Source of the DNA: Mobula hypostoma
Lineage: Eukaryota
NCBI RefSeq assembly: GCF_963921235.1
Contig: NC_086108.1
Location: forward strand, 20,584,001 to 20,648,000
Reading direction: 5' to 3'
DNA: 64,000 bases
Positions within the stretch are counted from its first letter, which is position 1. The number at the start of each line of letters is the position of its first letter. Positions 8,316-64,000 of this stretch are shown in pieces. The position numbers were made by a program, and so were the translations under genes. The notes beneath the pieces are model-generated. The model did no database searches, was not told the origin of the DNA, and worked only from the letters and a program-made list of their open reading frames with translations.

Positions 8316-8447
8316 ACCCCGCTGAAGGGTCTCAGCCCGTAACGTCAACTGTACTCCTTTCCATCGATGCTGCCTGGCCTACTGAGTTCGTCCAGCACTT
8401 TGTGTGTGTTGCTTGAATTTCCAGTATCTGCAGATGTTGTCTTGTTC
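8316..8447 (+). mobile_element. PLE terminal fragment with decayed hammerhead motif
   Basis: gctgaagggtctcagcccgtaacgtcaact...gatgctgcctggcct matches the other PLE ends. Confidence 0.75.
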
Positions 8448-8699
8448 ACTTATAAATATATCCATGTTCTATATTCATCCTAATCTAGATCAAATAATGA
8501 CCATGGGACAAACTTAAGTCTTGTTGGAATTCCTAGACAAAGATACATTTACATATTGGGCTTTAATAATGTAAAAATAGAGAAAATATATAGAATAACC
8601 TATAACATAATGCATCTCCTGTATATCATATACTTTGTTACAAAACTTAAACATCAGTGCTATCTTCTGTTAACAATGTTATTGAAAATCTTTACCCAC

Positions 8700-8805
8700 C
8701 GTAGGCTTTTTTCCTTCTTTCAGTAGTGTTTTCCTTCTCAAAACTCCTTGAATTGTGACACATCCCAGGAAGAAGTTCACTGCCAGCTCTTCAGATTCCA
8801 CAGAA
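8700..8805 (-). CDS. RALGPS2: RALGPS2 coding exon, start of PH domain (106 nt)
   Basis: Acceptor TTCTTATTCCCAG, donor GTGGGT. Encodes SVESEELAVNFFLGCVTIQGVLRRKTLLKEGKKPT; VTIQGVLRRKTLLKEGKKPT is the RALGPS2 PH-domain N-terminus as I recall it. Confidence 0.95.
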
Positions 8806-9470
8806 CTGGGAATAAGAAAAAGATAACGTGATGAGCATTGATACAATGCAACAAATCAAAATGGGTCAAGGATGTTCAATACATTTCAACTTGAAGGGTA
8901 TCTTGATCCAATTTTTTCTTAACATGTAAAAGCCAGAAAGCTGTTTTTCAATACAGTTCAGAGCTCCAACCACATACTCAAAATTTGATTTGTATTTAAA
9001 TTTCACCATTGACATTTCAAATTATTTGCTTGATTAAATCAGAGCAGACACTGCATCACAATTGTTAAAAATTACCGAACAATCTTGAGACTTGTGTTTC
9101 ATGCTTCACCTTACAGTATATATTTTCAAATGTCTTTTAGACAGCACCATTACATAAAACAATTTCCAATAAATGTATATGTAATGGAATCAACCGAGGC
9201 TATGTTGCAACATCAGGAGCCTATTGATCCTGAACAGCAAATAATGGAGTAATGATGACTTTATGTGAAATAGACATATCTAAATTAATCTCAGGCACTT
9301 CCCAGAAATGTTCCCTTCAAAAAAGGTAAATTATGAATCATGTTAGAACAGTTATGTGACAGCTTGATTACCTGGATGTTAGAATCACTTTTAAATGAAA
9401 ACTAATTTATTCCAATAGCAATTTTCTTCCTTTCTAATTCTGTCCATGCTCTCTTGAGAGCAGGGACTGT

Positions 9471-9730
9471 TTTATTTATTGCATTTATTGAGATACAGCA
9501 TGGAATTGGCGCTTCCGGGCCTTCAAGTCCCAGCAATCCCTTAATTTAACCCCAGCCTATTCATGGGGGAATTTGCTACAAACAATTAACCTACCAACTG
9601 TTAGGTCTTTGGACTGTGGGAGGAAACTGGAGCACCTGTAAGAAACCCATGCCGTCACAGGGAGAACGTACAAACTCTTTACAGGCAGATGCGGGAATAG
9701 CCTACACTCATTACACTACTTGCCCCAGCC
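9471..9730 (-). mobile_element. SINE (V-SINE/HE1-like)
   Basis: Core tgtgggaggaaactggagcacc...aacccatgc and (aaat)n tail on minus; related to 43845-44125. Confidence 0.7.
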
Positions 9731-10608
9731 TGCTCAACAATAGCTCACAGAGCCAGTTTCTGCACATTGCCTCAGTAGCTCAGTCCATAGTAAGAAGGGC
9801 AAGTGTTTGCACCAAGATCCTGTAACCGCAGCTCCTCCATCACCATCCCTCCCTCCCCCACTCCATTCCTTCCTTTCGCATCCTTATCTCTCTCTTGCTC
9901 TGTATTAGTGCTATCTTTCATGGTAACATATCCTGAGTACTAAACTGGGTACTACAGTATATGCACTTGGTTTACACAAACCCATGAGAATTCATTCTGA
10001 GTTCACAGGTTGTGCTGAAGCAATTGATTTGAGCAGGAAAAGTACATTGTGATTCAGAATCCAAAACTAAGGAAAAGCCTGTCATCTTTGATTCCTGTTC
10101 CAATTATATTCCAGGAAGAATGTACATATGCATTCATTTGACTTGAAGTTCCTTAAACAAGAAGTACTGTGCTTATGAAAACTTATCCTATCAACTCCTT
10201 GTCCCATCTGGCACAACATCACCACTCACAGGCAAATGCTGTACACTTTCTCACTGGTTCACACAACATTGAACCATGCAGCAATAAGATTATCAATTTA
10301 TTACTGCAGAAACATCAGTGGAGACCAGTACTTTGCACCTGCATTCCCAGAGCAGCAGGTAGTCTGACTGCATGAGTATTTTCAAGGTGACTTTGCACCT
10401 ATGCATGTGTGAACTCAGGACTAAGAGCTCGACAATAAATAAATCAAAGATCTGTGGGTAGCACAAAGCAGCATTATCAATTCATTGTTTTTACTAAATT
10501 AAGTACTAAAGGAGCTAGGAATACATTTATCACCTTAACAGCATTCAATGAAACAGGTGCTGTTCCTATTCAACTGATCTCTGCTGGAAAGTGCACAGTT
10601 AAGTGCAA

Positions 10609-11397
10609 GGCTACGTCCACACTAGAAGGGATAAATCCGTAACCAAAGCTTTTTCTCTTCGTTTTGACCCTCCGTCCACACTGAAACGGCATTTTCCTCC
10701 CCTGAAAATGGAGCTTTTCTAAAACGCTGTCCAAAGTGTTTAAATCTGAAAACGCCGGTTGGGTGTTGTAGTGTGTACGGGGTAATTGGAGGTTTTAAAA
10801 TACCTGTCATCCCTTTCATCGGTGAAGAGACTATGGCTGTAGGAAATATTTCCAGGGTGACCCCTCTGTGGGAGTGGGGAAGATGTTGGTGGGGCCACCC
10901 GGGAGTCTGTGTGTCTGTATGTATAGCTATTGTAGTGGCTATGAGGCTGGTATTGTGGCGGTGAAAAGTACTGAGGGGGAGCCATCATATTCCTCATCAT
11001 TGCAAATCCCTCTGCAACAGAGTTAGTTAGTATTTCAATGTTCATTGTCAGCCGGGTCATACTGTCCGTGAACTCCCTGTTGGATTCCTCCATACGCTCC
11101 AGTATTTGTTTTTTCAGTTTTAAGTCCTCCTGCGCGAGAGCCAACAGATGTCCATCGTTTGGCAATTTCCCTTTAAGTTTTTCTAGTCTGTAACTGGACA
11201 AACGCCACCAAGTATACCGTTTTCTCTTCACTTGTTTTCTGTAGATGTGTCCTGCGCATGCCCAGTAGGAGGAGATTCACCCAAATACCTGTTTTAATGA
11301 GGACGGAGGTATTTTCAAAAACGCCTGGTGTGGATGCCTATCGTTTTTACGCGAAACCAGCATTTGCAAAATTATCCTGTCTATTGTGGATGTAGCC
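10609..11397 (-). mobile_element. PIF/Harbinger non-autonomous element with residual ORF
   Basis: TIRs GGCTACGTCCACACTAG / GGCTACATCCACAATAG; 3-bp TSD CAA (10606-8, 11398-400); internal ORF 10740..11231 with a coiled-coil-like segment. Confidence 0.88.
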
Positions 11398-11889: not shown

Positions 11890-11967
11890 CTGTTGGTTTT
11901 CATGTGCCCTCGAGAGCCATTCCTCCCAACTCGTGGCACTGGACAAAGAGAATAATAGAAACGGTTC
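11890..11967 (-). CDS. RALGPS2: RALGPS2 internal coding exon (78 nt, symmetric phase 2/2)
   Basis: Acceptor ATTCTGCAG, donor GTAATA. Encodes (R)NRFYYSLCPVPRVGRNGSRGHMKTN(S), similar to recalled RNRLYHSLGPVTRVARNGYRSHMKAS. Confidence 0.88.
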
Positions 11968-12083
11968 CTGCAGAATTTTATTGTAGTTTAAAAAAAAGCA
12001 ATATGCAGGAAGATTGTATGTATTTATGATTATCAAGTTATCGTGGCACTATTAAATAAATTAAACAACTGAAGTAAGACAAT

Positions 12084-14345
12084 CACAAACTGGAGAAATT
12101 CTGCAGGTGCTGCAAGTCCAAGCAACGTACACAAAATGCTGGAGGAACTCAGGAGGCCAGGTAGCATCTATGGAAAAGAGTAGTTGACATTTCAGGCCGA
12201 GACCCTTTGGCAGGACTGGAGAAGAAAATCTGAGGAGTAGGTTTAAAAGGTGGGGAGAGGGAAGCGATGGGCAGGCAACGAGATAAGGTGAGAGAGGGAA
12301 AAAGGAATGGAGAATGGGGGAAATACCAGAAGTTCGAGAAATTGATGTTCATGGCATCAGGTTGGAGGCTACCCAGGATGTTCCTCCAACCCAAGTGTGG
12401 CCTCATCACAACAGTGGAGGAGGCCATGCATAGACATATCTGAATGGGAATGGGAAGTGGAATTGAAATGGGTGGCCACTGGGAGATCCCACTTTTTCTG
12501 GTGCTCAGCGAAGCAGTCTCCTAATCTATGTCGGGTCCCACTGATAGACAGGAGGCCACACCGGGAGCATTGGACAACAGACTTTCAGGTGAAATGTCGT
12601 CTTACCTGGAAGGACTGTTTGGGGCCCTGAATGGTAGTGAGGGAGGAGGTAAGAGGCAGGTATAGTACTTGTTCCACTCTCAAGGATAAATGCCAGGAAG
12701 GAGATCAGTGGGGAGGGACGAATGGACAAGGGAGACCACTCCCCCTCCTCCACCATTCCCCCTCCTTCACCATTCCCCATCCCTTTTTCCCTCTCTCACA
12801 TTATCTTGTTGCCTTCCCATCGCCTCCATCCAGTGTTTCTCCCCCTTTTCTTTCTTCCATGGCTTTCTGTCCTCTTCTATCAGACTCCCCCTTCTCCAGC
12901 CCTGTATCTCTTTCACCAATCATCTTCCCAGCTCTTTACTTCATCCCTCCCCCTTCAGGTTTCACCTATCACCTTGTATTTCTCTCTCCCCTCCCCCCAT
13001 CTTTTAAGCCTGCTCTCTAGTCGGTTCCTCGACATGTTGGTTCAAAAAACCATCCCGCATACATTCCAAGAAATCCTCTTCCTCAGCACCTTTACCAATT
13101 TGGTTCACCCAATCTACATGTAGATTGAAGTCACCCATTATAACTGCTGTTCCTTTATTGCACACATTTCTAATTTCCTGTTTAATACCATCTCCGACCT
13201 CACTACTACTGTCAGTGCTGGGACCCCAGTTGTTTACAATATATATTAATGACTTGGATGAGGGAATTAAATGCAGCATCTCCAAGTTTGCGGATGACAC
13301 GAAGCTGGGTGGCAGTGTTAGCAGTGAGGAGGATGCTAAGAGGATGCAGGGTGACTTGGATAGGTTGGGTGAGTGGGCAAACTCATGGCAGATGCAATTT
13401 AATGTGGATAAATGTGAAGTTATCCACTTTGGTGGCAAAAATAGGAAAACAGATTATTATCTGAATGGTGGCCGATTAGGAAAAGGGGAGGTGCAACGAG
13501 ACCTGGGTGTCATTATACACCAGTCATTGAAAGTGGGCATGCAGGTACAGCAGGCGGTGAAAAAGGCGAACGGTATGCTGGCATTTATAGCGAGAGGATT
13601 CGAGTACAGGAGCAGGGAGTTACTACTGCAGTTGTACAAGGCCTTGGTGAGACCACACCTGGAGTATTGTGTGCAGTTTTGGTCCCCTAATCTGAGGAAA
13701 GACATCTTTGCCATAGAGGGAGTACAAAGAAGGTTCACCAGATTGATTCCTGGGATGGCAGGTCTTTCATATGAAGAAAGACTGGATGAACTGGGCTTGT
13801 ACTCGTTGGAATTTAGAAGATTGAGGGGGGATCTGATTGAAACGTATAAGATCCTAAAGGGATTGGACAGGCTAGATGCGGGAAGATTGTTCCCGATGTT
13901 GGGGAGGTCCAGAACGAGGGGTCACAGTTTGAGGATAGAGGGGAAGCCTTTTAGGACCGAGATTAGGAAAAACTTCTTCACACAGAGAGTGGTGAATCTG
14001 TGGAATTCTCTGCCACAGCAAACTGTTGAGGCCAGTTCATTAGCTATGTTTAAAAGGAAGTTAGATATGGCCCTTGTGGCTACAGGGGTCAGGGGGTATG
14101 GAGGGAAGGCTGGGTTCTGAGTTGGATGATCAGCCATGATCATAATAAATGGCGGTGCAGGCTCGAAGGGCCGAATGGCCTACTCCTGCACCTATTTTCT
14201 ATGTTTCTATGTTTCTATGTTTCTAAACCTTTTTCTCAGCTTTTTCTCTCCAGTCTTGCCAAAGGGTCTTGGCCCGAAACATCAACTGTACTTTTCCATA
14301 GATGCTGCCTAGCCTGCTGAGTTCCTCCAGCATTTTGTGTGTGTT
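12084..14345 (-). mobile_element. PLE with inverted terminal copy, carrying a CR1 insertion
   Basis: Minus-strand GIY-YIG remnant (12330-12640) and terminus; plus-strand copy of the terminus at ~12750-13007 and 14226-14345; flanked by AACTGAAGTAAGA(A)CAAT direct repeats. Confidence 0.85.
13008..14225 (+). mobile_element. Young CR1 LINE with 5' inversion
   Basis: 13008-13211 antisense endonuclease segment (IMGDFN); 13212-14120 open RT C-terminus; (tttctatg)n tail. Confidence 0.9.
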
Positions 14346-14449
14346 AACTGAAGTAAGAACAATGGGGTTTAGGATCACATGTACTATTAAATGACAAACA
14401 CTCAGTGGATTCCAATTTTCCCTCATCATGCATCTTCCATCTGGTATTG

Positions 14450-16335: not shown

Positions 16336-16349
16336 GTTGACTGTGCCAA

Positions 16350-27090: not shown

Positions 27091-28528
27091 TGGAAACAGT
27101 CACCACTTAATGGCGCCATTTTACAGCAATTAACACAGAGCGGGTTGGAAATATAATAGTCCAAAATAAAAGATTTTGTGCATTTTTCAAATGTCCTAGC
27201 AATTTTTTTAAGATAAACAAAAATGCAAAGGATTCAAAATTTAATATTTTGATTCACTTTACTCAGTTTTATATATTTTGCATCTACAACAAAGTTACTA
27301 ATTACATGCCCTACTGCATTCACAATAAGCTTTCAATTTTGCATTATTTAGACATAGGATGGGATTGAACCATTTCCATTGCTGAATGACTAAAAGCCTG
27401 AATAAAATTAGCCCCAACTCCATAGCCTTTCCCCCCACCATATAATTTAATGATTATCAAAAATCTATTAACACTGGAATTAAATCAAGAATTGGCTTGC
27501 AAAAGGGAGATCCAAATTCTGTCACTTTCAAAAAGGCCTAGCTTTAATGTTTTGCTTAACAAGCACTATTTCTTTATATTGACTGTTTCAGCTTCCCTAT
27601 ATATAAATGTTGAAACAAATGATGGAAACAAAATCTTCCATTGGTACTTCCATTGTACCATTCTATTCATTTAAGGATTTGGGGCCAAACCATTTTGAGG
27701 ATTAACAATGTTGTGCCTTTATTTAAGCAAGGCTGCAAAGATAAGCTAATGAACTACAGGGCAGTGAGTGTCGCATTAGTGGTGGGAAAGTTACTGGAAG
27801 GAATTCTGAAGGACAGGATCTATTTGCATTTGAAAAAGTACTGATTAGAGATAGTTAAGATGGCTTTGTTTATTGAAGATCATGTCACACAATGAGTTTT
27901 TTTGAGGAGGTGACAAAAGGATTAATGAAGGCAAGGTAGAAGTCCTTGTTAACATGGACGTCAGCAAGGCCTTTGACAAAGTACCTCATGGTGGCTGCAC
28001 ATAGAAGTTTAAATACATGGGATCCAAAGTGAGTAAGCAAAGTGGATATAAAATTGGCTTGATTGTAGGAGGCTGACAGTGGAAGTGAAAGGATACTTTT
28101 CAGATTGGGAACCTGGAACTAATGACATCTGGTCCTTAGGTTGCGATTCTAAATTGGAGAAAGAGCAATTTTGATGGTATCAGAAAGGATCTGGCAAGTG
28201 TGGTTTGGGACAGGCTGTTTTCTAGCAAAGATAGTAAGTGGGAGGCTTTCAAAAGTAAAATTTTGAGAGAACAACATTCGTATATTCCTGTCAGAAAAAA
28301 AAAGCAATGATACCGGGTTTAGAGAATCTCGTTTATGAAAAATATTGAGGGCCTAGTTAAGAAAAAGGTGGTGCATAGCAGGTATAGGCAGGTAGGAATA
28401 ACTAAGGTACTTGAGGAAAGTAAGAAATGCAAGAGAACACTGAAGAAGGAAATCAAGAGGGCTAAAAGAAGGCATGAGGTTGCTCTAGCAAACAAGATGA
28501 AGGAGAATCCTAAGGGCTTCTACAGATA

Positions 28529-28630
28529 ACACACATCAAAGTTGCTGGTGAATGCAGCAGGCCAGGCAGTATCTCTTGGAAGAGGTACAGTCGACGTTTC
28601 AGGCCGAGACCCTTCGTCAGGACTAACTCA
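28529..28630 (-). mobile_element. Short PLE 3' terminus
   Basis: Nearly identical to 46636-46735; flanked by tacagata/tacatata. Confidence 0.85.
28588..28625 (-). ncRNA. Minimal type-I hammerhead ribozyme motif (intact core)
   Basis: UAGUC-CUGACGA-AGGGUCUCGGCCU-GAAA-CG-UC/GACUG; stem I AGUC:GACU. Confidence 0.72.
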
Positions 28631-34345: not shown

Positions 34346-36625
34346 ATGGAAGGTTGCATCTAACCAATCTTTTAGAGTTTTTCGAGAAGGTTATCAGGAA
34401 AGTTCATGAAGGCAAGGCAGTGGATGTTGTCTACATGGATTTTAGCAAGGCCTTTGACAAGGTCTGCATGAGAGGTTGGCCAAGAAAGTTTAGTTGCTTA
34501 GAATACAATATGAGCTATTAAATTAGACATTGGCTTCACAGGAGAAGTAGGGAGTAGATGATTGCCTCTAGTGACTGGAAGCCTGTGACTAGTGGTGTGC
34601 TGCAGAGATCGGCGCTGGGTTCATTGTTGTTTGTTATTTATTTCAACGATCTGGATCTTAATGTGGTAAACTGGATCAGCGAATTTACAGATGACAAGAC
34701 TGGGGGTGTAGTGGACAGCTAGGAAGGCTATCAAAGCTTGCAGCGGGATCTGGACCTGCTGAGAAAATAGGCTAAAAAATGGAAGATGGGTTTAATTCAG
34801 ACAAGTGTGAGGAGTTGCACTTTGGGTGGACCAGCCAGGGTAGGCCTTACATGGTGAACGGTTGGGCACTGAGGAGTGCAGTACCACAGAGGGATCTGGG
34901 AATACAGATCCATAATTCCTTGAAAGTGGCATCACAGGTAGATAGGGTTGTAAAGAAAGCTTTTAGCATGTTGGCCTTTATAAATCAATGTATTGAATAA
35001 AGGAGTTGGGATGTTATGTTGAAATTGTATAAGACATTGATGAGGCCTAATTTGGAGTATCATGTGCAGCTCTGTTCGCCTACCTACAGAAATAATATAA
35101 ATGAGATTGAAAGAGTGCAGGAAAAATGTACACGATGTTGCTGGTACTTGACCTGAGTTATAGGGAAAGGTTGAATAGGTTAGGACTTTATTCCCTAGAA
35201 CGTAGAAGATTAAGTAGAGTTTTGATAAAGGTATAAAAAATTATGAGGGGTATAGATAGGGTAAATGCAAGCAGGCTTTTCCCATTGAGTTTGGATGAGA
35301 CTACAACTAGAGATCATGGTTTAAGGATGACAGGTGAAATGTTTAAGAACACGAGGGGAATCAACTTAATTCAGAGGGTGGTGACAGTGTAGAACGAGCT
35401 GCCAGCGCAAGTGGTGTATATGGGTTTGATTTCAACATTTAAGAGCAATTTGGAAAGGTACATGTACAGGAAAGGTATGGAGGGCTATGGTTTAGGTGCA
35501 GGTTGATGGGACTAGGCAGATTCATGGTTTAGCATGAACTAGATGCGCAAAGGGCCTGTTTCTGTGCAGTAGTGTTCTATGACACTACGGCTGTACCTTA
35601 GTGCTATCCATAATGTTTTGTTATCTGCAGGATGTCCATGACCGTATCCTTTGTGGACAAGGAGAAAGTTTATTGCATTTAGAGTCAACAAGATTATGGC
35701 TTTTATAACTGAAGAAAACAAATGAAGTGATATATTTGCAAACCGGCTCCATTCTGTTTAAAAGTTCTCTGGTTTCTCTTCAAATCATATAAAAGTTTGA
35801 GCCTCTTGTCATATATCACTTTAATTCTCTAACCTAGTTGCATTCTGACCTCCCTACCTATGGCTCATAGATTATTCCAACAATATATAATATAAGCTTA
35901 AGGATAGTACCTTGTCCTTCATTGGGTTACATTTTAGCCATCAGGACTTAATATTGAACTTTAACAATTAACAGTTCTATACAATAGATAGTCTATTCTT
36001 CATTGAATCTAGATATCTGTTAGCAGCTGCTTCCTGGACAACTTCAGTCTGGGCCCTCCCACAGAGGTTTCCTCTCTTTTGTTACCACTCTTCCCCTCTC
36101 TGCAACTTTAAACTGGGTTTTTTATTTTTCAGGTTCTGATGTATGCTTGACCCAAAACATAGACTCTCTCTACTGAAGCTGCTTAACCTGCTGAGTGCTT
36201 CAAGCATTTTCAGTTTTTGTTTCAAAATTCCAGGTCCGATGGTTTTTGCTCCATTTACTCTCCAGTATCACCACATTTACATTTCTTAGGTAAGGATTTT
36301 GCTGTCAACATATCAATCAGGTGATCAGCATCAGAGTGGCAATTCATTATTTGAAACACTGGTCCACAAATAATCTGTACGTTTTGCCACCAGAATGTCA
36401 AGAATTAGAAAAATGCTAAATACTAAAAAAAGAAATCAAAGAAAATGCCGTTTTTGAGTATATCTGTCAGTCAGTAAAGCTGATATATGACTCAGCTTAT
36501 AAACTATCTTGAACAGTAGAAAAGGCATTTACCCAACAGCAACAGCTATAGATAAGAGCAGTACGTGGAACTATTACACATCAAAAATCAGCCTAATGTA
36601 AATATGATTTGCAAAAATCACTTGC

Positions 36626-36680
36626 CTTTCAAATGCTGGCCATGACACTTCTTCACTGAGTTCAGAACCTTCACTGCTAC
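36626..36680 (-). CDS. RALGPS2: RALGPS2 internal coding exon (55 nt, phase 1/2) with GC donor
   Basis: Acceptor TTTTGCTTCAG. Encodes (G)SSEGSELSEEVSWPAFE(R). Donor AG|GCAAGT. Confidence 0.93.
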
Positions 36681-37256: not shown

Positions 37257-37668
37257 TATGCAAAATGCTGCAGGAATTCAGCAGGCCAGGCAGCATCTAT
37301 AGTAAAGAGTAAACAGTCAGCCTTTCCAGCAGAGACCCTTCGTCAGGACTGGAGAAAAAAGACGAGCAGTTAGAGTAATAAGGTGCGGGGAGGGGAGGAA
37401 GAAATACAAGGTAGGAGGTGATAGGTGAAACTGAGAGCCGGGGAGGGGTAAAGTAAAGAGCTGGGCAGTCAGTTGGTGGAAGAAGGGAGAATCTGATAGG
37501 AGAGGACAGAAAGCCATGGAAGAAAGGGAAGGGGGTGAAGCACCAGTAGGAGGTCATGGGCAGGTAAGCAGATAATGTGAGAGAGGGAAATGGGAATTGG
37601 GAATGGTGAACGGGCAGAGGGGGGGCATTCCTAAAAATTTGATAAAATCTATGTTTATGCCCTCAGTT
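37257..37668 (-). mobile_element. PLE 3' terminus, decayed hammerhead at 37314-37351
   Basis: CUGACGA-AGGGUCUCUGCUG-GAAA with altered cleavage site; purine-rich tract. Confidence 0.8.
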
Positions 37669-39888: not shown

Positions 39889-40525
39889 TATAGCCTCATG
39901 ATCTCCTAACCACATACTTAAACCTTTTCCTGTAGTCCCTATTATAATATCTTTTCTTTTAATTACGCATGATCCACTTCTAGGATAAATATTCTGCTAA
40001 AACTAACAGACATCTGCTTTGAATTGTGTCAATAGTCAAATGGCCTACTTGCTTTTCAACAGGTGCAGATGTCAAAGGTCTGTGTCAGTAACTGTTCACT
40101 GAGTGATCATAATCCTAGTTGACACAACAATGCCACCTGGAAATTAAATTGACCTTTATTTCCTGATACATTTCTCTACCCCCTAACATAAAGCGTATTC
40201 ATTATAACGTAAAGAACCTTGTTAATCAAGGATACTTAATCCAACAAGTTAACACACCAGAGTGGCTTTTGATAAAACCCTTGAAGCTCAGCAGTTTGAA
40301 GCTGTGATGAAATTACCAACCCAAATGCAAAAAGTAGTGTGTGGTAGAGTTTATCACATTAAAATCATTAGTTGACTTTCTAATAGTCAGTTCTGGAAAC
40401 AAATCACACAATCCACTTGGAAAACCAAAGCTTAAGTCACAATGCTTTCATTGCACAGTGCTGGGTGAGGAGTTGGGGAAGGGGGAGAGAATTGATTCCA
40501 CTAAATTACAATAGATTGGAACTAA

Positions 40526-42692: not shown

Positions 42693-42759
42693 AGGTGCTG
42701 GGGTCACAGCTTACGTGGGTCAAAAATGAGGTCCCTATAAATGTGGAGCAGAGTATATC

Positions 42760-43195
42760 AGCCAGAAGGATGCAGGGTGGAAATGCGAATCAAGGAGCAC
42801 AGGAGATGTATTCTTTTGGGTACCTGGAGAAATCGGCAGTAGCAGAACATTGCATTCTCAATGGCCATAGGATTGACTTCGACGGCACAAAACGACTGTG
42901 CTTTTGGGACAGGACAGCCTGGTAAAGGAAGCCATTGAAATAAAACTATAGAGGATAAGAATTTTAAAAAAGACAAAGGTCTCACTCTAAGCAAGAAGTG
43001 GAATTCAATTATAAACAAGGTGGGCGAGCGGAAACCTGATTGGATGAGGACTAACCAATTAGGAGAGATAGAGCACAGGGGTATAAATACCACCATACTA
43101 GACTTGCCCACATATTATCCCTGAAAAACGGCAGAGTTTGTCATCGTAACGTAGATTATAATCAACACTTACACCCAGCCTGAAGCCCGAGAAGT
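42760..43195 (+). mobile_element. Second PLE family, 3' end
   Basis: EKSAVAEHCILNGHRIDF and KEAIEIK (GIY-YIG C-terminus); decayed cctga...cgtaacgt motif at ~43120-43152. Confidence 0.75.
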
Positions 43196-44770: not shown

Positions 44771-45451
44771 TAACATGTTAGCCACCCTAATTCACTCACC
44801 ACTCAACAATACATGGGGTAATTCAAAATAGCCAATTATCCTATCAGCACATTTCTGTAATGTACAATGAAACTGGAAGACCCAGGGAAAATTCATACTA
44901 TCAAACGGAGAATATGCAAACTCAACTTTCTCAGCTCCAGAGGTCAGAATTGAACCCGGACTGCCAAACCTGAGGTGATAGCTCGACTTGTTGAGTCACT
45001 GTGCATCCCATTGTTACTAGTATAAATATTTTGGAGGGGGTAAACTATTAAATCCTGTGTCATAGAATTACCAAGTTTGTTTCTGCTCTTGTAGCCATAG
45101 TATTTAAGTGGTTGGTCTCATTCAATTTTTTGGTTCATGGTAACCTACAGACAGATGAAGATTCAGTGATGGCAGTGCCATTGAAAATGATGGCAAGACT
45201 GCAGGTTAGTGGAAAAAGAAACAGAAGTAACATTTCCGGTATAAATCCCTTCTTCAAACAGAAACGTTAACTCCCTGTTTCTCTTTCAACCAATGTTGCC
45301 TGATCAACTGAGGGCTTCCAGCATTTTTTTTACTTTTTTTCAGATTTTGAGCACTTGGATTTTTAAAAATTTCCATTGGTAAGCCATTTATTGGGGAGGG
45401 AGTACACTTTGATAACAATGTCAGCAAAACATCAGCGACAGATTCACACAC

Positions 45452-45603
45452 CTAGTGATATTCCACTGGAAATTGTGGAACTTTCTGCCTGGACTCTTGA
45501 AGGAGTGTAGTTTTCCATTACGCTGTCATCCAGCAAGTGCCGGGGTCTTCCATTGGGAAATGTAGCACTTTTAAACTCAGCTGTATTCATCTTGTGTATA
45601 AAG
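45452..45603 (-). CDS. RALGPS2: RALGPS2 internal coding exon (152 nt, phase 2/1)
   Basis: Acceptor TTTTTCCCACAG, donor GTGTGT. Encodes FIHKMNTAEFKSATFPNGRPRHLLDDSVMENYTPSRVQAESSTISSGISL(G). Confidence 0.95.
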
Positions 45604-46635
45604 CTGTGGGAAAAAGACTATTAATATGGCTCAAATTAACATTCTAAGAATATTGTACTGTTAACATACTGTACAAGACTAAATTAACAATTTACTTATT
45701 TTTCACCTCAAAGAAATTTAACATCCCCAAAGATCTCAAAAGATATTTAGAAAAAGGAGACATGCGTGTATACAAATTAGAGTCAAAAATAATTGGCATC
45801 AGTATCTCAGTGAAAGGTTTCACAATTATCATACGTGACTATATTTTTATCTAAACTATAACTCAAAACTTTATATTTTTAACTGCACATGAATGCTCTA
45901 CCAAAACTTCAGAAAGATAAAATGAATGCTTAAAAGTTTTTTTTCTGAACTTTAAGCAATAAGTACATAAAACAATCCATGTCAATCCAAAACAAAAAAA
46001 AAACTGAAAAGCAACGTCATAACTGCTTTGAGCAGCACCCAATCAGAGAGATTGGAAGCCTGAGAAGATATAAATCACTCAGGTTTGCTGATTGAGTAGA
46101 AAAGGCAGTAACTCATGGCAGTTTGGAACTTTGAGCAGCACTCAATCAGCATTTGGGATTGATTGGCAAGAACAAATTAAAGCAGGAGCAAGTGAAAAAG
46201 TCATTGTCAGAGTGTCCATCGTTGGAGTGGACAGAATTTGAATAGGGATTTTGAGGCTTCAGCAAGAAGAGGCTTCAGTGAGAGAAGGCAAAAAAGATGG
46301 AGTTAGAGATTCCCGCCCCCAACAGTTTATTGTTTTTTCTTCTTTATAGACAGGACTGGCAGCTCACTATTCCAGGATTCAGGTTCAGTTGTTCTACACA
46401 CAACAGAGCAGGAGGGATTAAAGGAGGAGGGGTGGTGTTACTAGTCAGGGAAAATGCCATGGAAGTGCTCTGTCAGGACAGACTGGAGAACTCGTCTGGG
46501 TGGAATTGAGAAATAAGAGGTATGACCAGGTTAAAGGGGCTATATTACAGACCACTCAAACGTCCGAGGTATTTAAAGAACCAAATTTGCAGAAAGATCA
46601 CAGACTGTTGCAAGAAACATGAGACTGTTATAGCA

Positions 46636-47386
46636 ACATACATCAAAGTTGCTGGTGAACGCAGCAGGCCAAGCAGCATCTATAGGAAGAGGCACAGTCG
46701 ACGTTTCAGGCCGAGACCCTTCGTCAGGACTAACTGAAGGAAGAGTGAGTAAGGGATTTGAAAGCTGGAGGGGGAGGGGGAGATGCAAAATGATAGGAGA
46801 AGACAGGAGGGGGAGGGATAGAGCCGAGAGCTGGACAGGTGATAGGCAAAAGGGGATACGAGAGGATCATGGGACAGGAGGTCCGGGAAGAAAGACGGGG
46901 GGGGGGGAGTGACCCAGAGGATGGGCAAGAGGTATATTCAGAGGGACAGAGGGAGAAAAAGGAGAGTGAGAGAAAGAATGTGTGCATAAAAATGAGTAAC
47001 AGATGGGGTACGAGGGGGAGGTGGGGCCTTAGCGGAAGTTAGAGAAGTCAATGTTCATGCCATCAGGTTGGAGGCTACCCAGACGGAATATAAGGTGTTG
47101 TTCCTCCAACCTGAGTGTGGCTTCATCTTTACAGTAGAGGAGGCCGTGGATAGACATGTCAGAATGGGAATGGGATGTGGAATTAAAATGTGTGGCCACT
47201 GGGAGATCCTGCTTTCTCTGGCGGACAAAGCGTAGATGTTCAGCAAAGCGGTCTCCCAGTCTGCGTCGGGTCTCACCAATATATAAAAGGCCACATCGGG
47301 AGCACCGGACGCAGTATATCACCCCAGTCGACTCACAGGTGAAGTGATGCCTCACCTGGAAGGACTGTTTGGGGCCCTGAATGGTG
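46636..47386 (-). mobile_element. Young 5'-truncated PLE (Neptune-like GIY-YIG)
   Basis: Open GIY-YIG frame GVIYCVRCSRCGLLYIGET...RFAEH...GMN; 9-bp TSD GTTATAGCA (46627-35, 47387-95). Confidence 0.93.
46695..46732 (-). ncRNA. Minimal type-I hammerhead ribozyme motif (intact core)
   Basis: UAGUC-CUGACGA-AGGGUCUCGGCCU-GAAA-CG-UC/GACUG, ~300 nt downstream of the GIY-YIG stop. Confidence 0.75.
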
Positions 47387-50059
47387 GTTATAGCAGGTGA
47401 TTTTAACTTTCCAGTGTTGACTGGGACTCCAATACTGTAAAAGGACTTCATTGGATAGAGTTTGTCAAATGTGTTCAGGAAAGTTTTCCTAATCAGCACG
47501 TCAAAGTCCCAACAAGAGAATTTGTGATACTTGACCTGCTATTAGGCAATGAGACAGGGCAGCTGACATAAATTTTTGCAGGGGAACACTGCATCTAGTG
47601 ATCACAATGTCATTAGTTTCAAAGTAAGTATGGAAAAAGATAGGTCTAGTCCATGGGTTGAGATTCTAAATTGCAGAAAAGCCAATTTTGATGGTATCAG
47701 AAAGGATCTGGCAAGTGTGGATGGGACAGGCTATTTTCTGTCAAAATGTACTTGTAAAGTGGGGGGCCTTCAAAAATGAAATTTTGAGAGTACAAAGCTT
47801 GTATGTACTGTCAGAATAAAATGTAAAGAAAACAGGTGTGGGGAACCTTGGTTTTCAGGAGATATTGAGGCCCTGGTTAAAAAAAAATGGAGGTGCATAG
47901 CAGGTCGGAACAAATTGGGTTCTTATGGAGTATAAAAAGTACAAGAGAATATTTAAGAAATAAATCAGGAGAACTAAAAGAAGGCATGAGGTTGCCCTAG
48001 CAGACAAAGTGAAGGAGAATCCTAAGGGAATCTACAGATATGTTAAGAGCAAAAGGATTGCAAAGGACAAAATTGGTCCTCTGGAAGATCAGAATGGTAA
48101 TCCATGTATGGAGTCAAAAGAGACAGGAAAGATTTTAAATTTTCTTTTGCATCTGTATTTACTCAGGAGATGGACACAGTCTATAGAGTGATGCAAAGCA
48201 GCATCAACTTTATACAGATTACAAACTTTATACAGATTACAGAGGAGGAGGTGTTTGCTATCCTGAAGCAAGTTAGAATGAATAAATCCCCAGGGCCTGA
48301 GAAGGTGTTCCCAGACATTCCCTCAGACCCTGTTGGGGTTAAGTGCAGAAATTGCCGGGGCCATAGCAGACATATTTAAATCATCCCTAGCGACAGGTGA
48401 GGTACCAGAGGATTGGAGGACAGCCAATGTTGTTCAGCTGTTCAAGAAAGGCTCCAAATATAAACCAGGAAATTATAGACCAGTGAGTCTGACATCAGTA
48501 GTGGAAAAGTTACTGGAAGGTATTTGGATAGACAAGGACTGATTAAGGATAGTCAACATGGCTTTGTGCGTGGTAGATCATGTCCAACCAATCTCAGAAA
48601 TTTTAATGACTAAGTTACCAGGAAAGTTGATGAAGGCAAGGCAGTGGATGTTGTCTACATGGACTTTAGTAAGGCATCTGACAAGGTTCCACATGGGAGG
48701 TTGGTTAAGAAGGTTCAGTCACTTGGCATTCAAGATGAGGTAGTAAATTGGATTAGACACTGGCTTTGTGGGAGAAGCCAGAAAGTGGTTGCCTTTCTGA
48801 CTGGAGGCCTGTGACTGCTGGAGTGCCGCAGGGATCGGTGCTGGGTCTGTTGTTATTTGTCATCTATATCAATGATCTGGATGATCACGTGGTTAACTGG
48901 ATCAGCAAATTTGTGGATGCTACCAAGATTGGCAGTGTAGTGGACAGCAAGGAAGACTATCATTGCTTGCAGTGGGCTCTGGACCAGTTGGAAAAATGGT
49001 CTGAAAAATGGCAGATGGAACTTGAAACAGACAAGCTCAAAGTGTTGCACTTTGGAAGTGAACCATCGGGTACTGAGGAGTGTGCAAGAACAAAGGAATT
49101 TTTGAATATAGGAGTATAATTTGTTGTAAGCAGTATCAGAGTTAGAAAGCTTTTGGCATGCTGTTCTTTATAAATCAAAGCACTGAGTACAGGAGATGGG
49201 ATGTTATGTTGAAGTCGTATAAGACATTGGTGAGGCCTAATTTCAAATACTGTGCGCAGTTTTGGTCAGCAACCTATGGGGAAAGATGTAAATAAGGTCG
49301 AAAGAGTACAGAGAAAATTTACAAGGATGTTGCCGGGTCTGGAGGACTTGAATTGTAAGGAAAGGTTGAATAGGTTAGGACTTTATTCCTTGGAACATAT
49401 AAGATTGAGAGGAGATTTGATAGAGGTATACAAAATTATGAGGGGTATAGACAGGGTAAATGCAAGCAGGCATTTTCCACAGAGGTTGGGTGGGATTACA
49501 ACCAGAGGTCAAGGGTTAAGGGTGAAAAGTGAAATGTTTAAGGGGAACATGAGTAGAAACTTCTTCACTCAGAGCATCCAGAGAGTATGGATTAAGCTGC
49601 CAGCACAAGTGGTACATGCAAGCTCAATTTCAATCTTTAGAAGAAGTTTGGGTAGGTACATGGAATGTAGAGGTCCTGGTGCAGGTCAATGGGAGTAGGC
49701 AGTTTAAATGGTTCAGCATAGACTAGATGGAAAGAAAAGCCTGTTTCTGGGCTGTACTTTTCTATGACTCTCTAACCTGAACCAATAAGTTGCTAGGAAG
49801 CTTATTTCATTGGAAGCAGTTCTAATCAGTTCTTACTTTTAGAAAACTTGCAGTTATAACTTGATCTTTAAGTCTGGGTAAATGTGTGGTATACTGGTGT
49901 TTGAGTTGCAGCTTGAGTAGAGTTGAGTTCACAAAGTTGGCATATATGTAGAGAACCTAAACTTGGAGATGGCGTTTGTGATTATTCGATTGGTTTTAAG
50001 TATGAGAACAAAGCAGAAAAATGAAAAACTTCCCTGAATGAATAGGAATAGAATAATAG

Positions 50060-51420: not shown

Positions 51421-51708
51421 CTTGATTCCACCTCCTTCTACTACCCATTGTGTTTTCCCCTATTCTTTCTTCACCTTTCCTGCCTATCACCTCCCTGCCT
51501 CCCTTCCCCCACCTCTTTATCTTTCTCCTTACTGGTTCTTCACCTGGAACCTACCAGCCTTCTCCTTCTCACCCTCCACCCACCTTCTTTATAGGGCCTC
51601 TGCCCCTTCCCCCTACAGTCCTGACGAAGGGTTCCGGCCCGAAACGTCGACAGATCTTTTCCACGGATGCTGCCCGACCTGCTGAGTTCCTCCAGCGTGT
51701 TGTGAGTG
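51421..51708 (+). mobile_element. PLE terminus-only insertion
   Basis: 12-bp TSD TTGTAACATTCT (51409-20, 51709-20); pyrimidine tract followed by the hammerhead motif. Confidence 0.88.
51616..51653 (+). ncRNA. Minimal type-I hammerhead ribozyme motif (intact core)
   Basis: CAGUC-CUGACGA-A-GGG UUCCGG CCC-GAAA-CG-UC/GACAG. Confidence 0.7.
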
Positions 51709-52729
51709 TTGTAACATTCTACTCCCTACCAGCACCCATGCCACAATAAGAGATACAATTCTAATGAATTGAAGATGTTATTATTCATATACTAGATTGT
51801 AATGTTTTATCTGACTCACTGGTCATTTACTTTTTCTTTCACCTTATCTAACTGCTCCCAACTTATCCAATGTAATTGATGCATTAAAAACACTTCTCCA
51901 AGATTTTTTTAAAATTATAAATACTTTATGATTTTGCCTCACTATCTTCCACAACTTCCTATTTGGTAATGATATGTGTTCGCTGTATTCACGTCATTTT
52001 TATGACCTGCAGAAATCATACGTAAATTAGCCTGATTGGAAAACAAGAGCACTGACATGCCAAACATGGTTTATTATTGTCACATGTACCAGGATACAGG
52101 GGAAAAACTTGTCTTGCATAGTGTTTATACAGTTCAAATTATTTACACTATGTATTAGGGTAGAATAAGGTAAAGTAATAACACTACATAATAATGTGTA
52201 AAACTACAGAAAAAGTGCACTGCAGATAAACGATAAAGTGCCAGATCATAGCAGATCATAGTCTGGCTCATGAGCAAAGAGTTCATCCTATCATACAAAA
52301 AGTCAGCCAAATATCTGCCCAAAAGAAGTTATAGTCTGTCCATATCCTCAAAAACTGTAAGAATTATGCTTGTGGCTCACCTAGCTCATGAGCAAACACC
52401 AATATTTCGAACTATCAAAGTAACACCAGACCATGAAGTAATAGCCCATGATATAATGTTTTTTTGCAAAGCATAGAACAGAACAATCAACATAATGTTT
52501 ATATTTGCTATTTGCTTCAGAAGACTGAAGATGCTTTGTCTCTTAACAAACTGCCCAGAGTTGGGAAAATAACCAGAAACAATGTGAGGTATATGACAAG
52601 AGATAATTCACTAACAATGTGTCTTCTCCCAATTGTTCCTTCAAAGCAATTAAAAAACATTCCATTTCCTACCTCTTTTCTGAAAATGTAATGTTTTATC
52701 CCTAAATAATAGATGAAAAGATTACTGAC

Positions 52730-52871
52730 TTGTATCCGAGGCTGTGGGACTTCCTATGTCCATGTGTGAACAGATGCCTGGAAGAAGGTGGAGTCGGTGG
52801 TATATTCATTAGGGCTGCCTCTGCTGCCACACTTCGCCGGCTGCTCTGTGGGGATGGTGCGACATCAGGTC
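52730..52871 (-). CDS. RALGPS2: RALGPS2 internal coding exon (142 nt, phase 1/2)
   Basis: Minus-strand acceptor TTTAAATCTCAG, donor GTCAGT. Encodes (G)PDVAPSPQSSRRSVAAEAALMNIPPTPPSSRHLFTHGHRKSHSLGY(N), matching the recalled RALGPS2 PxxP/HRKxHSLG linker. In frame with the next exon. Confidence 0.93.
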
Positions 52872-58000: not shown

Positions 58001-59103
58001 GGAGAGGTGGTAAATTGGATCAGACATTGGCTCAATGGAAGAAGCCAAAGAGTGGTAGTAGAGAATTGCTTCTCCGAGTGGAGGCCTGTGACTAGTGGTG
58101 TGCCACAGGGATCAGTGCTGGGTCCATTGTTATTTGTCATCTATATCAATGATCTGGATGATAATGTGGTAAATTGGATCAGCAAATTTGCTGATGATAC
58201 AAAGATTGGAGGTGTAGTAGACAGCGAGGAAGGTTTTCAGAGCCTGCAGAGGGACTTGGACCAGCTGGAAAAATAGGCTGAAAAACAGCAGATGGAGTTT
58301 AATGCAGACAAGTGTGAGGTATTGCACGTTGGAGGGACAAACCAAGGTAGAACATACAGGGTTAATGGTAAGGCACTGAGGAGTGCAGTGGAACAGAGGG
58401 ATCTGGGAATACAGATACAAAATTCCCTAAAAGTGTCGTCACAGGTAGATAGGGTCATAAAGAGAGCTTTTGGTACATTGGCCTTTATTAATCAAAGTAT
58501 TGAGTATAAGAGCAGGAATGTTATGATGAGGTTGTATAAGGCATCGGTGAGGCCGAATCTGGAGTATTGTGGTCAGTTTTGGTCACCAAATTACAGGAAG
58601 GATATAAATAAGGTTGAAAGAGTGCAAAGAAGGTTTACAAGGTTGTTGCCGGGACTTGAGAAACTCAGTTACAGAGGAAGGTTGAATAGGTTAGGACTTT
58701 ATTCCCTGGAGCGTAGAAGAATGAGGGGAGATTTGATAAAATTATGATGGTTATAGATAGAGTGAATGCAAGCAGGCTTTTTCCACTGAGGCACGGGGAG
58801 AAAAAAACCAGAGGACATGGGTTAAGGGTGAGGGGGGAAAAGTTTAAAGGGAACATTAGTGGGGGCTTCTTCACACAGAGAGTGGTGGGAGTATGGAATG
58901 AGCTGCCAGACGAGGTGGTAAATGTGGGTTCTTTTTTAACATTTCAGAATAAATTGGACAGATACATGGATGGGAGGTGTATGGAGGGATATGGTCCGTG
59001 TGCAGGTCAGTGGGACTAGGCAGAAAATGGTTCGGCACATCCAAGAAGGGCCAAAAGGCCTGTTTCTGTGCTGTAGTTTCTGTGGTTTCTATGGTTTCTA
59101 TGG
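54720..59103 (+). mobile_element. Near full-length CR1 LINE (5' tandem repeat, ORF1, ORF2, tail), disabled
   Basis: ORF1 CxxC..CxxC, leucine zipper and SGNH esterase (GDS, GAND, DGLH) with a frameshift; ORF2 endonuclease+RT with stops; (tttctatgg)n tail. Confidence 0.95.
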
Positions 59104-61289: not shown

Positions 61290-62190
61290 TGATAAAGTCT
61301 GCAGATGCTGAATATCTAAAGCAACACACACAAAATGTCGGAGGAACTCAGCAAGTCAGGAACTATTTATGGGAATGAATAAACAGTCAATGTTTCAGGC
61401 CGAGACCCTTCTTCAGGACTGGAGAGGAAGGCGAAGATGCCATCTTGAAAATGTCGGGGGAGGAGAAGGAGATAGCTAGTAGATGATAAGTGAAGCCAGG
61501 TGGGTGGGAAAGGTAAAGGGCTGGAGAGGAAGGAATCTAATAGGAGAGGAGAGTGGACCATAGGAGAAAGGGAAGGAAGAGGGAACCCAGACGGAGGTGA
61601 TAGGTAGATGAGAAGAGGTAAGAGTCCAGAGTGGGAATAGAAGGGAGGAAGGGGAGAGAATTCTTTTTTACTGTAAGGAGAAATCGATATTCATATAATC
61701 AGATTGGAAGCTACCCAGACAGAATATAAGATGTTGTTCATCCACTCTGAAGGTAGCCTCATCATGGCACAACAGAAGGCCATGACCCAACATGTCAAAC
61801 GGGAATGGGAATAGTAATTGTAATGAAAGTGTTTGGCCATCAAATAAGTTCCTCTTTTGGCAGATGGAGCGGAGGTGTTTGACAAAGCAGCCACCCAGTT
61901 TTAAAATAGGTGTCACCAATGTACAGGAGGCAATTGACAACCCTAGCAGATTCCCAGGTGAAGTGTTGCCTCACCTGAAAGGAATATTCGGGCTCTGAAG
62001 GGAGGGGAGGAAGGAGGAGAATGGACAGGTGTAGCATTTAGCCGCTTGCAGGGAGATTAGTGGGGAGGGACGAATGGTCAAGGGAATTGCGGAGGGAATG
62101 ATCCCCGTGGAAAGTGGAGAAAAATGGGAAGTAAAGGTATGTTTGGTGGTAGGATTGCTTTGGAAATGGCAGAATTTGCACAGCATAATA
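61290..62190 (-). mobile_element. Degraded PLE with hammerhead-like motif at 61384-61421
   Basis: LLYIGDT, EQHLIFCLGS; CAGUC-CUGAAGA-AGGGUCUCGGCCU-GAAA-CA-UU/GACUG. Confidence 0.85.
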
Positions 62191-62379
62191 ATAATTATGC
62201 CACATCTAAAGTCTGGCATGTTAAAAATCACCCTAAATAATATAAATTTGAAATGATAAAACTTTAAAATTGCGCTATTGATTTTTCAGGGCCAATGGGG
62301 TTGACTGGCAGTTGTTAATATTCATCCTGTTGCTAAAAGTGACTTTACCCTTCCAATAATTAGGCCTAAATTAGTCATC

Positions 62380-62800
62380 GAGTCATAGAGCACAGAAATA
62401 AGCCACTAGTTCCAACTTATCCCTTCCGACCGAGATTCCCACCCAAACTATTTCCATCTGCCCACCTTTAGCCCATATAACTCTTAACCTTTCCTATCCA
62501 TGTACCTGCATGTTGTTAATGTACCTGCCTCAAACATTTCCTCTGGCAGCTCATTCCATGTGCTGACCATTCTCTGGGTGAAAAAGTTGCCAAAGCTCCT
62601 TTTGCATCTCTTTTCCCTCACCTTAACCTATACCATCTAGTTCTTGATTCCCCAACCATGGGAAAAATTATGCATTCACCTTACCAATGCTCCTCATGAT
62701 TTTAAACACCTTTATAAGATCACCCCTCATTCTCCTAACCTCCAACTTGTTTAACCACTCCATAACTCAGTCCCTCAAGTCCCAGCAATATCCTCATAAA
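62380..62800 (-). mobile_element. Degraded CR1 3' fragment
   Basis: Similar to 2043-2510. Confidence 0.75.
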
Positions 62801-63524
62801 TATTTTTGGTCAATGCTAAGAATAATCACCAAGGCTGAGAGGTAAATATTCCAGGATACTTAACTTTTAAAAGAACTAGGCAAGATCCAAAATAAGCCCC
62901 GTTGTAAAAATATAATGGGATAAAGGCAGTAGAGAGTAAGATAAAGGCAGTAGATAGCACAGAAACTAAAGATGCAAGATGAATTAGGTGAAGTACAGAA
63001 ACAACAAGGGGCAAAAAATATTAATGGAAACTGACTGCAGATTTACAAACAACAGAGGTAATATGGTATATATCAGGAAATTCAAAGCACGTCATAACAG
63101 TAGTACAATAATCATGCACAACTTGAATTGGTTTGCAGGGCAACCCAAACTATCAGTAATTAAATGGAAGATTAATTTGCAGAATGTAGGAGAAGGTTTC
63201 CTTTGAGAGAACAGGCCACTTCCTTAGTATTATTAAATGAGCAGGATTTCATTAATAATCTGGTACTTAAGGGATTTTTTGTGGAAGAATGATCATTATA
63301 AAACAATATTTTATCTTAAAATGAAAGGTTTAATTCACTCTGAAACAGGGCCTTAAAACTAAATAAAGCAAATGTCAAAGGCCATGATGCACAAAATAGC
63401 TAACTGAGAAACTACATTAAATAGTAGAACAGTAAACAAGCAACTGCCAACATTTGTCAAAAAAGAATTTCTACATTATTTATTGCAAACATGTAGCCCA
63501 ATATGGCACAAAAAAAGGGAAGGT

Positions 63525-63930
63525 GGGAATTAGAATTGGTTTATCATTGTCACATGTACCGAGATATTGTAAAAAATTTGTCTTGCATATTGTTTATATC
63601 GATCAAATCATCATGCAGTGCATTGAGGTAGAATAAGTGTAAGCAGTGCAGAATGAAGTGTAATAGCTACACAAAAAATGCAATACAGATAAACAATAGC
63701 TGGAAGATCATAACGAGGTTGATTGCGAGGTTAGACATCCATCTTCCTGCACAATGTAACCATACAATATTCTTCAAACAGCAAGGTAGAAACTGTCTTT
63801 GAGCCTGGTGGTACATACTTTTAGGCGTTTGTATCTTCTATCTGATGGGAGAGGACAGAAGAGAGAATGTCTGGGTGGGTCTTTTATTATGCTGTCTACT
63901 TTACTGAGACAACAAGAAGTACAGACTTCT
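63525..63930 (-). mobile_element. Rex1-like 3' region (related piece at 52065-52260)
   Basis: ggtttat.attgtcacatgtacc shared by both copies. Confidence 0.55.
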
Positions 63931-63939
63931 TACTCTGAC

Positions 63940-64000
63940 TGCTCATCTTTTTTATCCAGTACTGATGAAGTGTCACGGCCCGACATGTCGACTGCTTACT
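63940..64000 (+). mobile_element. PLE terminus with decayed hammerhead, cut by the window end
   Basis: cagtactgatgaagtgtcacggcccgacatgtcgactg. Confidence 0.65.

Follow-up and report, generated by a model that had tools for sequence, protein, structure and literature searches.

The 64,000-nucleotide (nt) stretch of the Mobula hypostoma genome analyzed here (RefSeq assembly GCF_963921235.1, contig NC_086108.1, positions 20,584,001–20,648,000 of the forward strand; hereafter, the window) contains dispersed copies of a minimal hammerhead ribozyme (min-HHR) motif within the gene RALGPS2. We consider, with a probability of about 0.8, that these motifs are pseudo-long terminal repeat (pLTR) ends of endonuclease (EN)-bearing Penelope-like elements (PLEs) that carry a weakly cleaving minimal type-I fold dependent on a dimer or on protein help, and that the RALGPS2 copies are likely inert. 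The identity as PLE-terminal minimal type-I hammerheads had been proposed in an original prediction made from the sequence alone and is borne out by the results below.

The original prediction listed 11 sites, with coordinates that agree with the 38-nt motifs within about 5 bases. A fuzzy search of the window found nine motif copies, and these nine sites are one repeat that aligns over approximately 130 nt (nhmmer E-values of 1e-16 to 1e-43, using a profile seeded from the same window copies that it then scored). The nine therefore stand as one PLE family, but the site at 36135 (+) keeps the flanking repeat only, matching profile positions 76–143 (E = 6e-7; aligned part 36149–36210). The cores described as intact at 28588, 46695, and 51616 are the same three that were obtained by a base-by-base check (28588–28625 and 46695–46732 on the minus strand and 51616–51653 on the plus strand) and by a family-agnostic min-HHR descriptor, which assumes no family sequence and had exactly these three matches in the window and none in the reversed window. 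A strict core search also backs these copies (at 28620, 46727, and 51621), and 37346 and 61416 by core boxes only. The other six copies have changes in the core or stem III, and the core elements CUGANGA, GAAA, A15.1–U16.1, and H17 are present in three of the 11 sites. The interpretation of such changes as CpG-type decay holds for part of them; however, the copies at 12213 and 14256 carry A6C, which is common to an older subfamily.

The intact copies at 28588 and 46695 are identical 38-mers. Judged by their identity to the full-length natural copy L076 (93 and 98%, respectively), both are young insertions. The copy at 28588 lies in a mini-insertion (28528–28628) that begins about 8 nt before the core, and the copy at 46695 belongs to a 5′-truncated PLE copy (46632–47388; 98% identity to L076) with a GIY-YIG end that passes the Pfam cut-off (PF01541, E = 7e-5 on 47029–47418). 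The window copies are dispersed and tied to a coding element, and no tandem array of the retrozyme type was found among them.

Full-length parents of this repeat are present in the genome. A search with a reverse transcriptase (RT) fragment as query gave 55,442 first-look candidates, of which 150 were scored, and several of these have frames of 1043 codons. Among eight long copies that were fetched, five (L076–L079 and L082) have a hammerhead at both ends of the long open reading frame (ORF), and the whole 1043-codon frame is open in four of these five. The layout of these parents is a hammerhead, 166 nt, a 1016-amino-acid (aa) RT and GIY-YIG ORF, approximately 300 nt, and another hammerhead; this pLTR–ORF–pLTR unit measures 3514 nt from motif to motif in L076. 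When read from the first ATG (1016 aa), the ORF matches RVT_1 (E = 4e-5, 24 bits) and GIY-YIG (E = 1e-3, 19.8 bits), both below the Pfam cut-off, and includes a CX4CxxC linker before the endonuclease at aa 883–891. The copies have pLTRs, inverted 5′ copies, and a tail of 30–40 nt, and inverted head-to-head pairs are common among them. With C3 of the hammerhead core numbered 0, the two strands of stem I are −5 to −1 and +28 to +32, and cleavage is predicted between +27 and +28. On this scale, of 103 3′ ends, 38 fall at +90 to +99 and another 37 at +125 to +134; this two-peaked pattern is the known PLE tail. In L253 and L428, the hammerhead region carries a short head-to-tail duplication, with a junction that leads from about +28/+33 to −23/−11; such duplications are possible seeds of retrozyme-like tandem arrays.

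The genome-wide counts (3.48 Gb searched) agree with the very large family that had been predicted. The exact 34-mer has 6,605 matches and the core-intact pattern has 76,948, with none for the control in either case. In a genome sample of 720 kb (nine large contigs, sampled at even spacing as 72 stretches of 10 kb), the repeat-end profile had 123 matches (one per 5.9 kb), of which 83 cover the hammerhead region, and the reversed control had none. The descriptor had 11 matches in the same 720 kb, none in the reversed sequence, and 0, 0, 0, 0, and 1 in five shuffles. Extrapolation from the 83 matches gives roughly 400,000 remnants genome-wide if the sampled contigs are typical. The description of a ribozyme family inside one gene was therefore right in location but overstated, since the window has the same motif density as the genome on average and only three of the 11 sites are intact. 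The expectation that these copies escape RNA annotation was met in the Rfam search of the window, which had no hammerhead family among its seven matches at E ≤ 5; the motif is too reduced for the Rfam hammerhead models.

The site at about 43120 (+), which had been noted as a variant from another family, does belong to a second PLE family, but its hammerhead (approximately 43112–43156, with a 7-bp stem II) is decayed and has lost G8 and A13. The fragment that contains it (42730–43195) has TATAAATA located 39 nt before the hammerhead core, and no obvious CX2-5CxxC linker was observed in the part of its EN that was seen. This second family (family 2) has 169 exact genome matches and shares the core, the extra A, and the ACGU with the first family (family 1). 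In comparison, its 7-bp stem II is unrelated in sequence, and the stems of the two families are not alignable pair by pair. The first base lies within −15 to +12 in ten of 25 family 2 copies; of the 15 that extend further upstream, 12 have a TATA-like box at −36 to −39. Given the missing linker, family 2 is possibly of the Poseidon type.

For the fold, stem II of family 1 is better read than in the original prediction as an extra A followed by GGGU/CUCG/GCC(C/U). The CCU form is fixed in all eight long copies fetched and hence does not reflect decay alone. Conservation was examined in 85 aligned copies from several subfamilies, which were kept from 132 profile matches in 864 kb; 47 matches that did not span the region were left out, and the window copies that seeded the profile were included. 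The extra unpaired base between positions 9 and 10.1 is A in 82 of these 85 copies. Position 11.1 is C in 32 and U in 50, with a G10.1–C11.1 pair in the CCC copies and a G–U wobble in the youngest subfamily. Stem III is a palindromic, loop-less ACGU in both families, which makes a nested dimer fold possible. The extra base after A9 and the palindromic stem III match the published PLE min-HHR, and the motif is hence likely to function solely in dimers or when aided by protein. The 38-nt monomer is predicted to fold at −11.0 kcal/mol with UGAC of the core paired to GUCG of the cut site, whereas the open core scores −7.0 kcal/mol. The nested hammerhead dimer is predicted at −11.5 kcal/mol and the best two-strand fold at −30.3 kcal/mol (secondary structure only, no tertiary terms). 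This predicted misfold fits the low activity (PMC4209133) and the protein assistance (PMC11167929) reported in the sections of these papers that were available. By analogy, cleavage is likely weak and would occur as a dimer or with the element's own protein.

Among the 85 copies, the share of the commonest letter is 0.91 over the 27 non-CpG motif columns (one column below 0.8), 0.53 just upstream of the motif (eight of eight columns below 0.8), and 0.71 just downstream (nine of 13 columns below 0.8), and conservation thus starts and stops with stem I. Between subfamilies, free variation is seen at N7 and in loop 2.

The positions where copies begin were also mapped. Young copies were picked solely by the sequence downstream of the motif, using anchors at +40 (103 copies) and +73 (83 copies, overlapping with the former). 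Their main sources were a random sample and the first 5.4 Mb of contig C1. With both anchor sets, the per-base chance of a 5′ end is 2.2–2.5% at −15 to 0 and approximately 0.3–0.4% downstream and further upstream. When one end was counted per event (n = 132, a lower count in that arm pairing merged some recurring junctions across loci), 32 ends are located in −15 to 0, or 2.21% per nt compared with a baseline of 0.33% (about 7-fold). The commonest 5′ end is −4/−5, the start of stem I. In contrast, no peak was found at the cut site: ends at +21 to +28 account for four of 98 copies (anchor +40) and one of 70 (anchor +73), and among 162 mapped ends, one is exactly at +28 and one is near. Genome-wide, the cut site has 391 junctions defined by two non-templated purines, compared with 1381 at −4, 409 at −8, and 265 at −23; the junction patterns differ between positions, and these ratios are rough. 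The host-joined share per 30 junction loci each is 12, 13, and 5. About a third of 100 listed cut-site junctions begin with AG-GACT, and such starts can be obtained through stem I microhomology with an inverted arm; for this reason, no cut-site peak is claimed, and a small excess of ends at the cut site is possible. Several host-joined 5′ ends (among the L351–L410 junctions) carry short insertions that resemble the element's own sequence, presumably products of an end joining like that of polymerase theta. Transcription starts 30–31 nt after a TATA box and at a pyrimidine-A initiator, and these promoter rules put the start at about −8 and −4. Taken together, the gathering of 5′ ends at stem I and the lack of a matching cut-site peak indicate that copies are likely derived from uncut RNA and suggest that the ribozyme opens the transcript of the element.

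These patterns likely arose as follows. The pLTR promoter would begin transcription at or just before stem I, and reverse transcription would initiate internally on uncut RNA, at the two tail sites, in analogy to the anole element in vitro. Many cDNAs would then run off the 5′ end of the RNA after 100–140 nt and be inserted singly or in head-to-head pairs, leaving mini-copies with the whole motif; such run-off copies would explain the abundance of the motif without any host role. The ribozyme would be selected in active source elements only, where the cut would separate the tandem units of a read-through transcript and trim the first ~32 bases off a promoter-started transcript. A more specific proposal, which we offer tentatively and at less than even odds, is that the hammerhead makes up the initial ~37 bases of a transcript begun at the promoter, stem I lying at the start site, and acts as a protein-triggered self-decapping switch, with the solo hammerheads (hundreds of thousands) being run-off cDNAs. 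Uncut RNA would be translated and copied, whereas cut RNA would leave the cycle.

Several observations weigh against the interpretation of the motifs as PLE ends with a selected ribozyme that opens the transcript. A second block at +46 to +70 is as conserved as the motif itself (0.90 in the 85 copies), and thus conservation alone does not prove catalysis. This block (L076:1729–1760; window 46657–46681) directly precedes the first tail end and could serve as a protein-binding or RT-start signal. The check for stem covariation across subfamilies gave a negative answer: within family 1, the stems are invariant, with no compensatory pair changes in the 85 copies and only one-sided G–C to G–U changes (2.5 and 11.1). 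Moreover, A6C is found in 13 of the 85 copies, and an older subfamily spread with it, although it is absent in the youngest subfamily. As an otherwise intact pattern, A6C has 1,703 genome matches, and approximately 23 of 30 A6C loci, judged by eye, belong to that one older subfamily. Among other hammerheads, A6C occurs as a natural variant of low activity in Mg2+ (PMC3088659, PMC7151607), the activity being strongly lowered by the change (PMC7151607), and it is reported elsewhere to prefer Mn2+. In 93 young copies selected by downstream anchors, the core is changed at six of 837 positions and loose positions at 15 of 930 (p = 0.12), and G8/C17 are changed at six of 186 positions and other CpG sites at 37 of 465 (p = 0.035). 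This slightly better-kept core, a difference that is not significant outside the CpG sites, could be a hint of selection after insertion but could also reflect changes common to source lineages. For the 5′ ends, the nominal Poisson P of 2e-16 at −15 to 0 applies to a bin chosen after inspection, and most mapped copies come from those first 5.4 Mb of one contig. The 391 cut-site junctions are not zero and have no matched neutral control. The base that precedes host-joined ends shows no excess of a cap-derived G: G occurs twice and A ten times at −4, and G three times and A ten times at −8. The TATA-like word of family 1 is weak (of 120 sequences upstream of the motif, 45 have TTCAAAT at −35), and the Drosophila Penelope start is described, in the part of that paper covered, as 46 nt before the intron and not at the ribozyme (PMC2377424).

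Structure or repair may alternatively explain the 5′-end pile-up. A hairpin between CCUUC (−13 to −9) and GAAGG (+5 to +9), or a protein bound to the ribozyme, could halt the RT, or the cDNA could fold back, with microhomology end joining completing the insertion. Folding with 15 upstream bases predicts a hairpin over −14 to +10, 17 of the 32 ends in the bin are centers of head-to-head pairs, GAAG microhomology is present at some junctions (L179 and L222), and short element-like insertions are found at several host-joined ends. In addition, junction palindromes in rotifer PLEs were read as self-priming in the portion of the report covered (PMC3846280), which describes the palindromes at pLTR 5′ ends together with TATA/Inr-like words and no link to a ribozyme. 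However, host-joined ends alone are enriched as well (13 in the bin, 0.90% compared with 0.15%, P ~5e-7), and family 2 ends cluster likewise despite unrelated upstream sequence. Furthermore, in some pairs both arms end before the core (−13 and −12 in L203), which hairpin fold-back would not give. We therefore regard this explanation as somewhat unlikely.

It is less probable still that the motif has lost cleavage and persists as part of the promoter or as a protein-binding site, its hammerhead appearance being a relic. The amplification of the A6C subfamily, the G10.1–U11.1 pair in the youngest subfamily, and the missing cut-site peak would all fit such a relic. The same is true of the available accounts of the anole element, in which catalytic mutants leave in vitro insertion unaffected (PMC11167929), and of Naiad PLEs, which thrive without hammerheads (PMC8557442). 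Nevertheless, the free variation is limited to N7 and loop 2, as catalysis would permit, a second family has the same core and ACGU with different stems, and the anole motif cleaves with protein according to the same partial account. A role in the host appears very unlikely. Sense copies would have to dimerize through ACGU, cut RALGPS2 introns, and shape splicing or intron decay; dimers between copies from different transcripts are also conceivable. The identical sense 38-mers at 28588 and 46695, the possible nested dimer fold, and the tens of thousands of intact copies in the genome are compatible with this idea. Against it, the sense pair lies 18 kb apart in different introns, both members are young insertions, and sense copies are not depleted in the window (five sense and four antisense to RALGPS2 among the nine). 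Moreover, the active dimer (−11.5 kcal/mol) competes with two misfolded monomers (−11.0 kcal/mol each), and published min-HHRs have no monomer activity and low dimer activity in the sections consulted (PMC4209133). Within RALGPS2, the intronic copies are probably passengers without activity.

The motif class, its dispersed abundance, and its dimer- or protein-dependent activity are already published, as the parts of two papers covered here describe. Metazoan PLEs carry minimal type-I hammerheads with massive dispersed occurrence and low dimer activity (Cervera and de la Pena, 2014; PMC4209133), and examples have been published for fish, coelacanth, frog, and reptiles. The ray motifs share with these min-HHRs the core boxes, the extra base after A9, the G10.1–C11.1 pair, the absence of loop 3, the palindromic 15.2–16.2, and a stem I of 4–5 bp, as well as the location in both pLTRs and the occurrence mostly as solo motifs or opposite-strand pairs from truncated copies. 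Stem II is 7–8 bp in Schistosoma, whereas it is 4 bp with a 4-nt loop in family 1 and 7 bp in family 2; the youngest subfamily also differs in having U at 11.1. The count of 76,948 compares with 4,000 in coelacanth and 9,000 in Xenopus, which were obtained by another search method, and the one supplement searched has no shark or ray term. The Anolis Poseidon element PAc (Frangieh et al., 2024; PMC11167929) is similar in its RT and GIY-YIG ORF, the hammerhead at the pLTR–ORF junction, and the two 3′ end sites that form a tail with two RT starts; in the text covered, its cleavage is protein-assisted and unprocessed RNA is the main substrate, as proposed here. Unlike in PAc, the first in-frame ATG of the ray element is 166 nt after C3, past the tail and not within stem II, and the parts of the PAc study covered report no 5′-end hot spot at stem I. 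The ray ORF also has the CX4CxxC linker that Poseidon lacks. In the available sections of a survey of PLEs (PMC8557442), a CX2-5CxxC linker is assigned to Neptune and Nematis and not to Poseidon. With these EN-bearing groups, the ray element shares the C-terminal GIY-YIG, the linker, partial tandems, inverted 5′ copies, and the 30–40 nt tail. By its linker, it is probably of the Neptune/Nematis type. An intron near the promoter, as some families have, was not found here: no spliced-type junction is present among the 162 mapped ends, despite an acceptor-like pyrimidine tract and AG before stem I. Non-LTR retrozymes with type-I hammerheads, likewise derived from PLE ends, are reported for one chondrichthyan in the part of a preprint covered (bioRxiv 10.64898/2026.07.22.740005); these form tandem arrays of short non-coding units, in contrast to the dispersed ends of a coding element described here. 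No report of these ray PLE families or of the 5′-end hot spot was found in the literature searched, which left most subscription papers and Repbase/Dfam outside.

The host gene is well supported. The exon at 45453–45602 (−) is 100% identical to RALGPS2 of rays and 96–98% identical to that of sharks in a protein search; an atlas search with one host exon had no match. Mapping of ray and shark proteins placed an earlier exon in the right neighboring stretch (L043) and a later one in the left (L049), and the whole window is therefore inside RALGPS2, as the original prediction of one host gene had stated. The piece at 45450–45603 is internal to contigs of 1.1–1.8 kb in three of four runs (presumed RNA), with zero or one difference. 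For the PLE itself, none of the RNA sets listed contained a match. The exon at 11892–11975 is likely alternative, and the short exon at 36626, which closes the gap that the protein mapping had left, apparently has a GC rather than a GT donor. All motif copies are intronic in RALGPS2, which is on the minus strand, such that 51616 (+) is antisense to the host RNA and the only intact sense copies are those at 28588 and 46695. Repeats make up at least 42% of the window. The many LINE (long interspersed nuclear element) fragments in the table are, we assume, CR1-like, and the broken transposase ORFs presumably resemble hAT/SPIN elements. In addition, a 111-nt inverted repeat with a 10-nt spacer and 90% complementarity at 31873–32104 is likely a MITE-like (miniature inverted-repeat transposable element) or fold-back insertion; its microRNA matches are all sub-threshold.

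Table. Features of the window (positions within the 64,000-nt stretch; sense and antisense refer to RALGPS2).
Feature	Position	Strand	Remarks
DNA-transposase-like ORFs, broken	1636-2064 and 4701-6206		weak Pfam matches only
LINE fragments (RT, endonuclease, GDSL-esterase ORF1)	2062-3900, 13008-14120, 32900-35500, 37800-41700, 47500-49700, 55100-59100		Pfam
Decayed min-HHR	8314..8351	+	antisense; U4, A6, A13, and stem I changed
RALGPS2 exon	8694..8805	-	ray and shark protein mapping
RALGPS2 exon	11892..11975	-	in P0014, not in P0001
Decayed min-HHR, A6C subfamily	12181..12218	-	sense; G8A and CpG changes
EN fragment	12329-12734		beside the 12181..12218 copy
Decayed min-HHR, A6C subfamily	14251..14288	+	antisense
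Intact min-HHR	28588..28625	-	sense; in ~100-nt mini-insertion (28528-28628)
Old relative	36129..36226	+	downstream block only, no recognizable hammerhead core
RALGPS2 exon, short	36626..36680	-	donor boundary approximate; translation matches P0001/P0014
min-HHR with core boxes present	37314..37351	-	sense; stem II, stem III, and cut triplet broken
Second PLE family fragment	42730..43195	+	frameshifted EN end, CCAAT-like boxes, TATAAATA, decayed hammerhead
Old relative, tail block only	45260..45343	+	profile match (45260-45327); absent from the original prediction
RALGPS2 exon	45452..45603	-	100% identity to ray RALGPS2 proteins
5′-truncated PLE copy	46632..47388	-	GIY-YIG end, ~300-nt pyrimidine-rich 3′ region, hammerhead, short tail
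Intact min-HHR, youngest subfamily	46695..46732	-	sense
min-HHR with intact core, other subfamily	51616..51653	+	antisense; loop UCCG, one stem I mismatch
RALGPS2 exon	52726..52871	-	tblastn E 4e-21
min-HHR with core boxes intact	61384..61421	-	sense; cut triplet AUU, CA in place of the stem III palindrome
EN fragment	61678-62190		beside the 61384..61421 copy
Decayed min-HHR	63957..63994	+	antisense; A14C, stem I and II changes; tail runs into neighbor L043

The window itself is ordinary, the motif class being known. The value of the finding lies partly in its scale, with approximately 77,000 core-intact copies that are invisible to Rfam and have intact full-length parents. According to the covered part of the PLE survey (PMC8557442), it is unclear what the PLE hammerhead does. 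The mapped ends indicate that uncut RNA gave rise to the copies and favor a start site at stem I, which makes the question of that role testable. If the self-decapping interpretation is true, the genome of this ray would be a record of the 5′ end of the PLE template.

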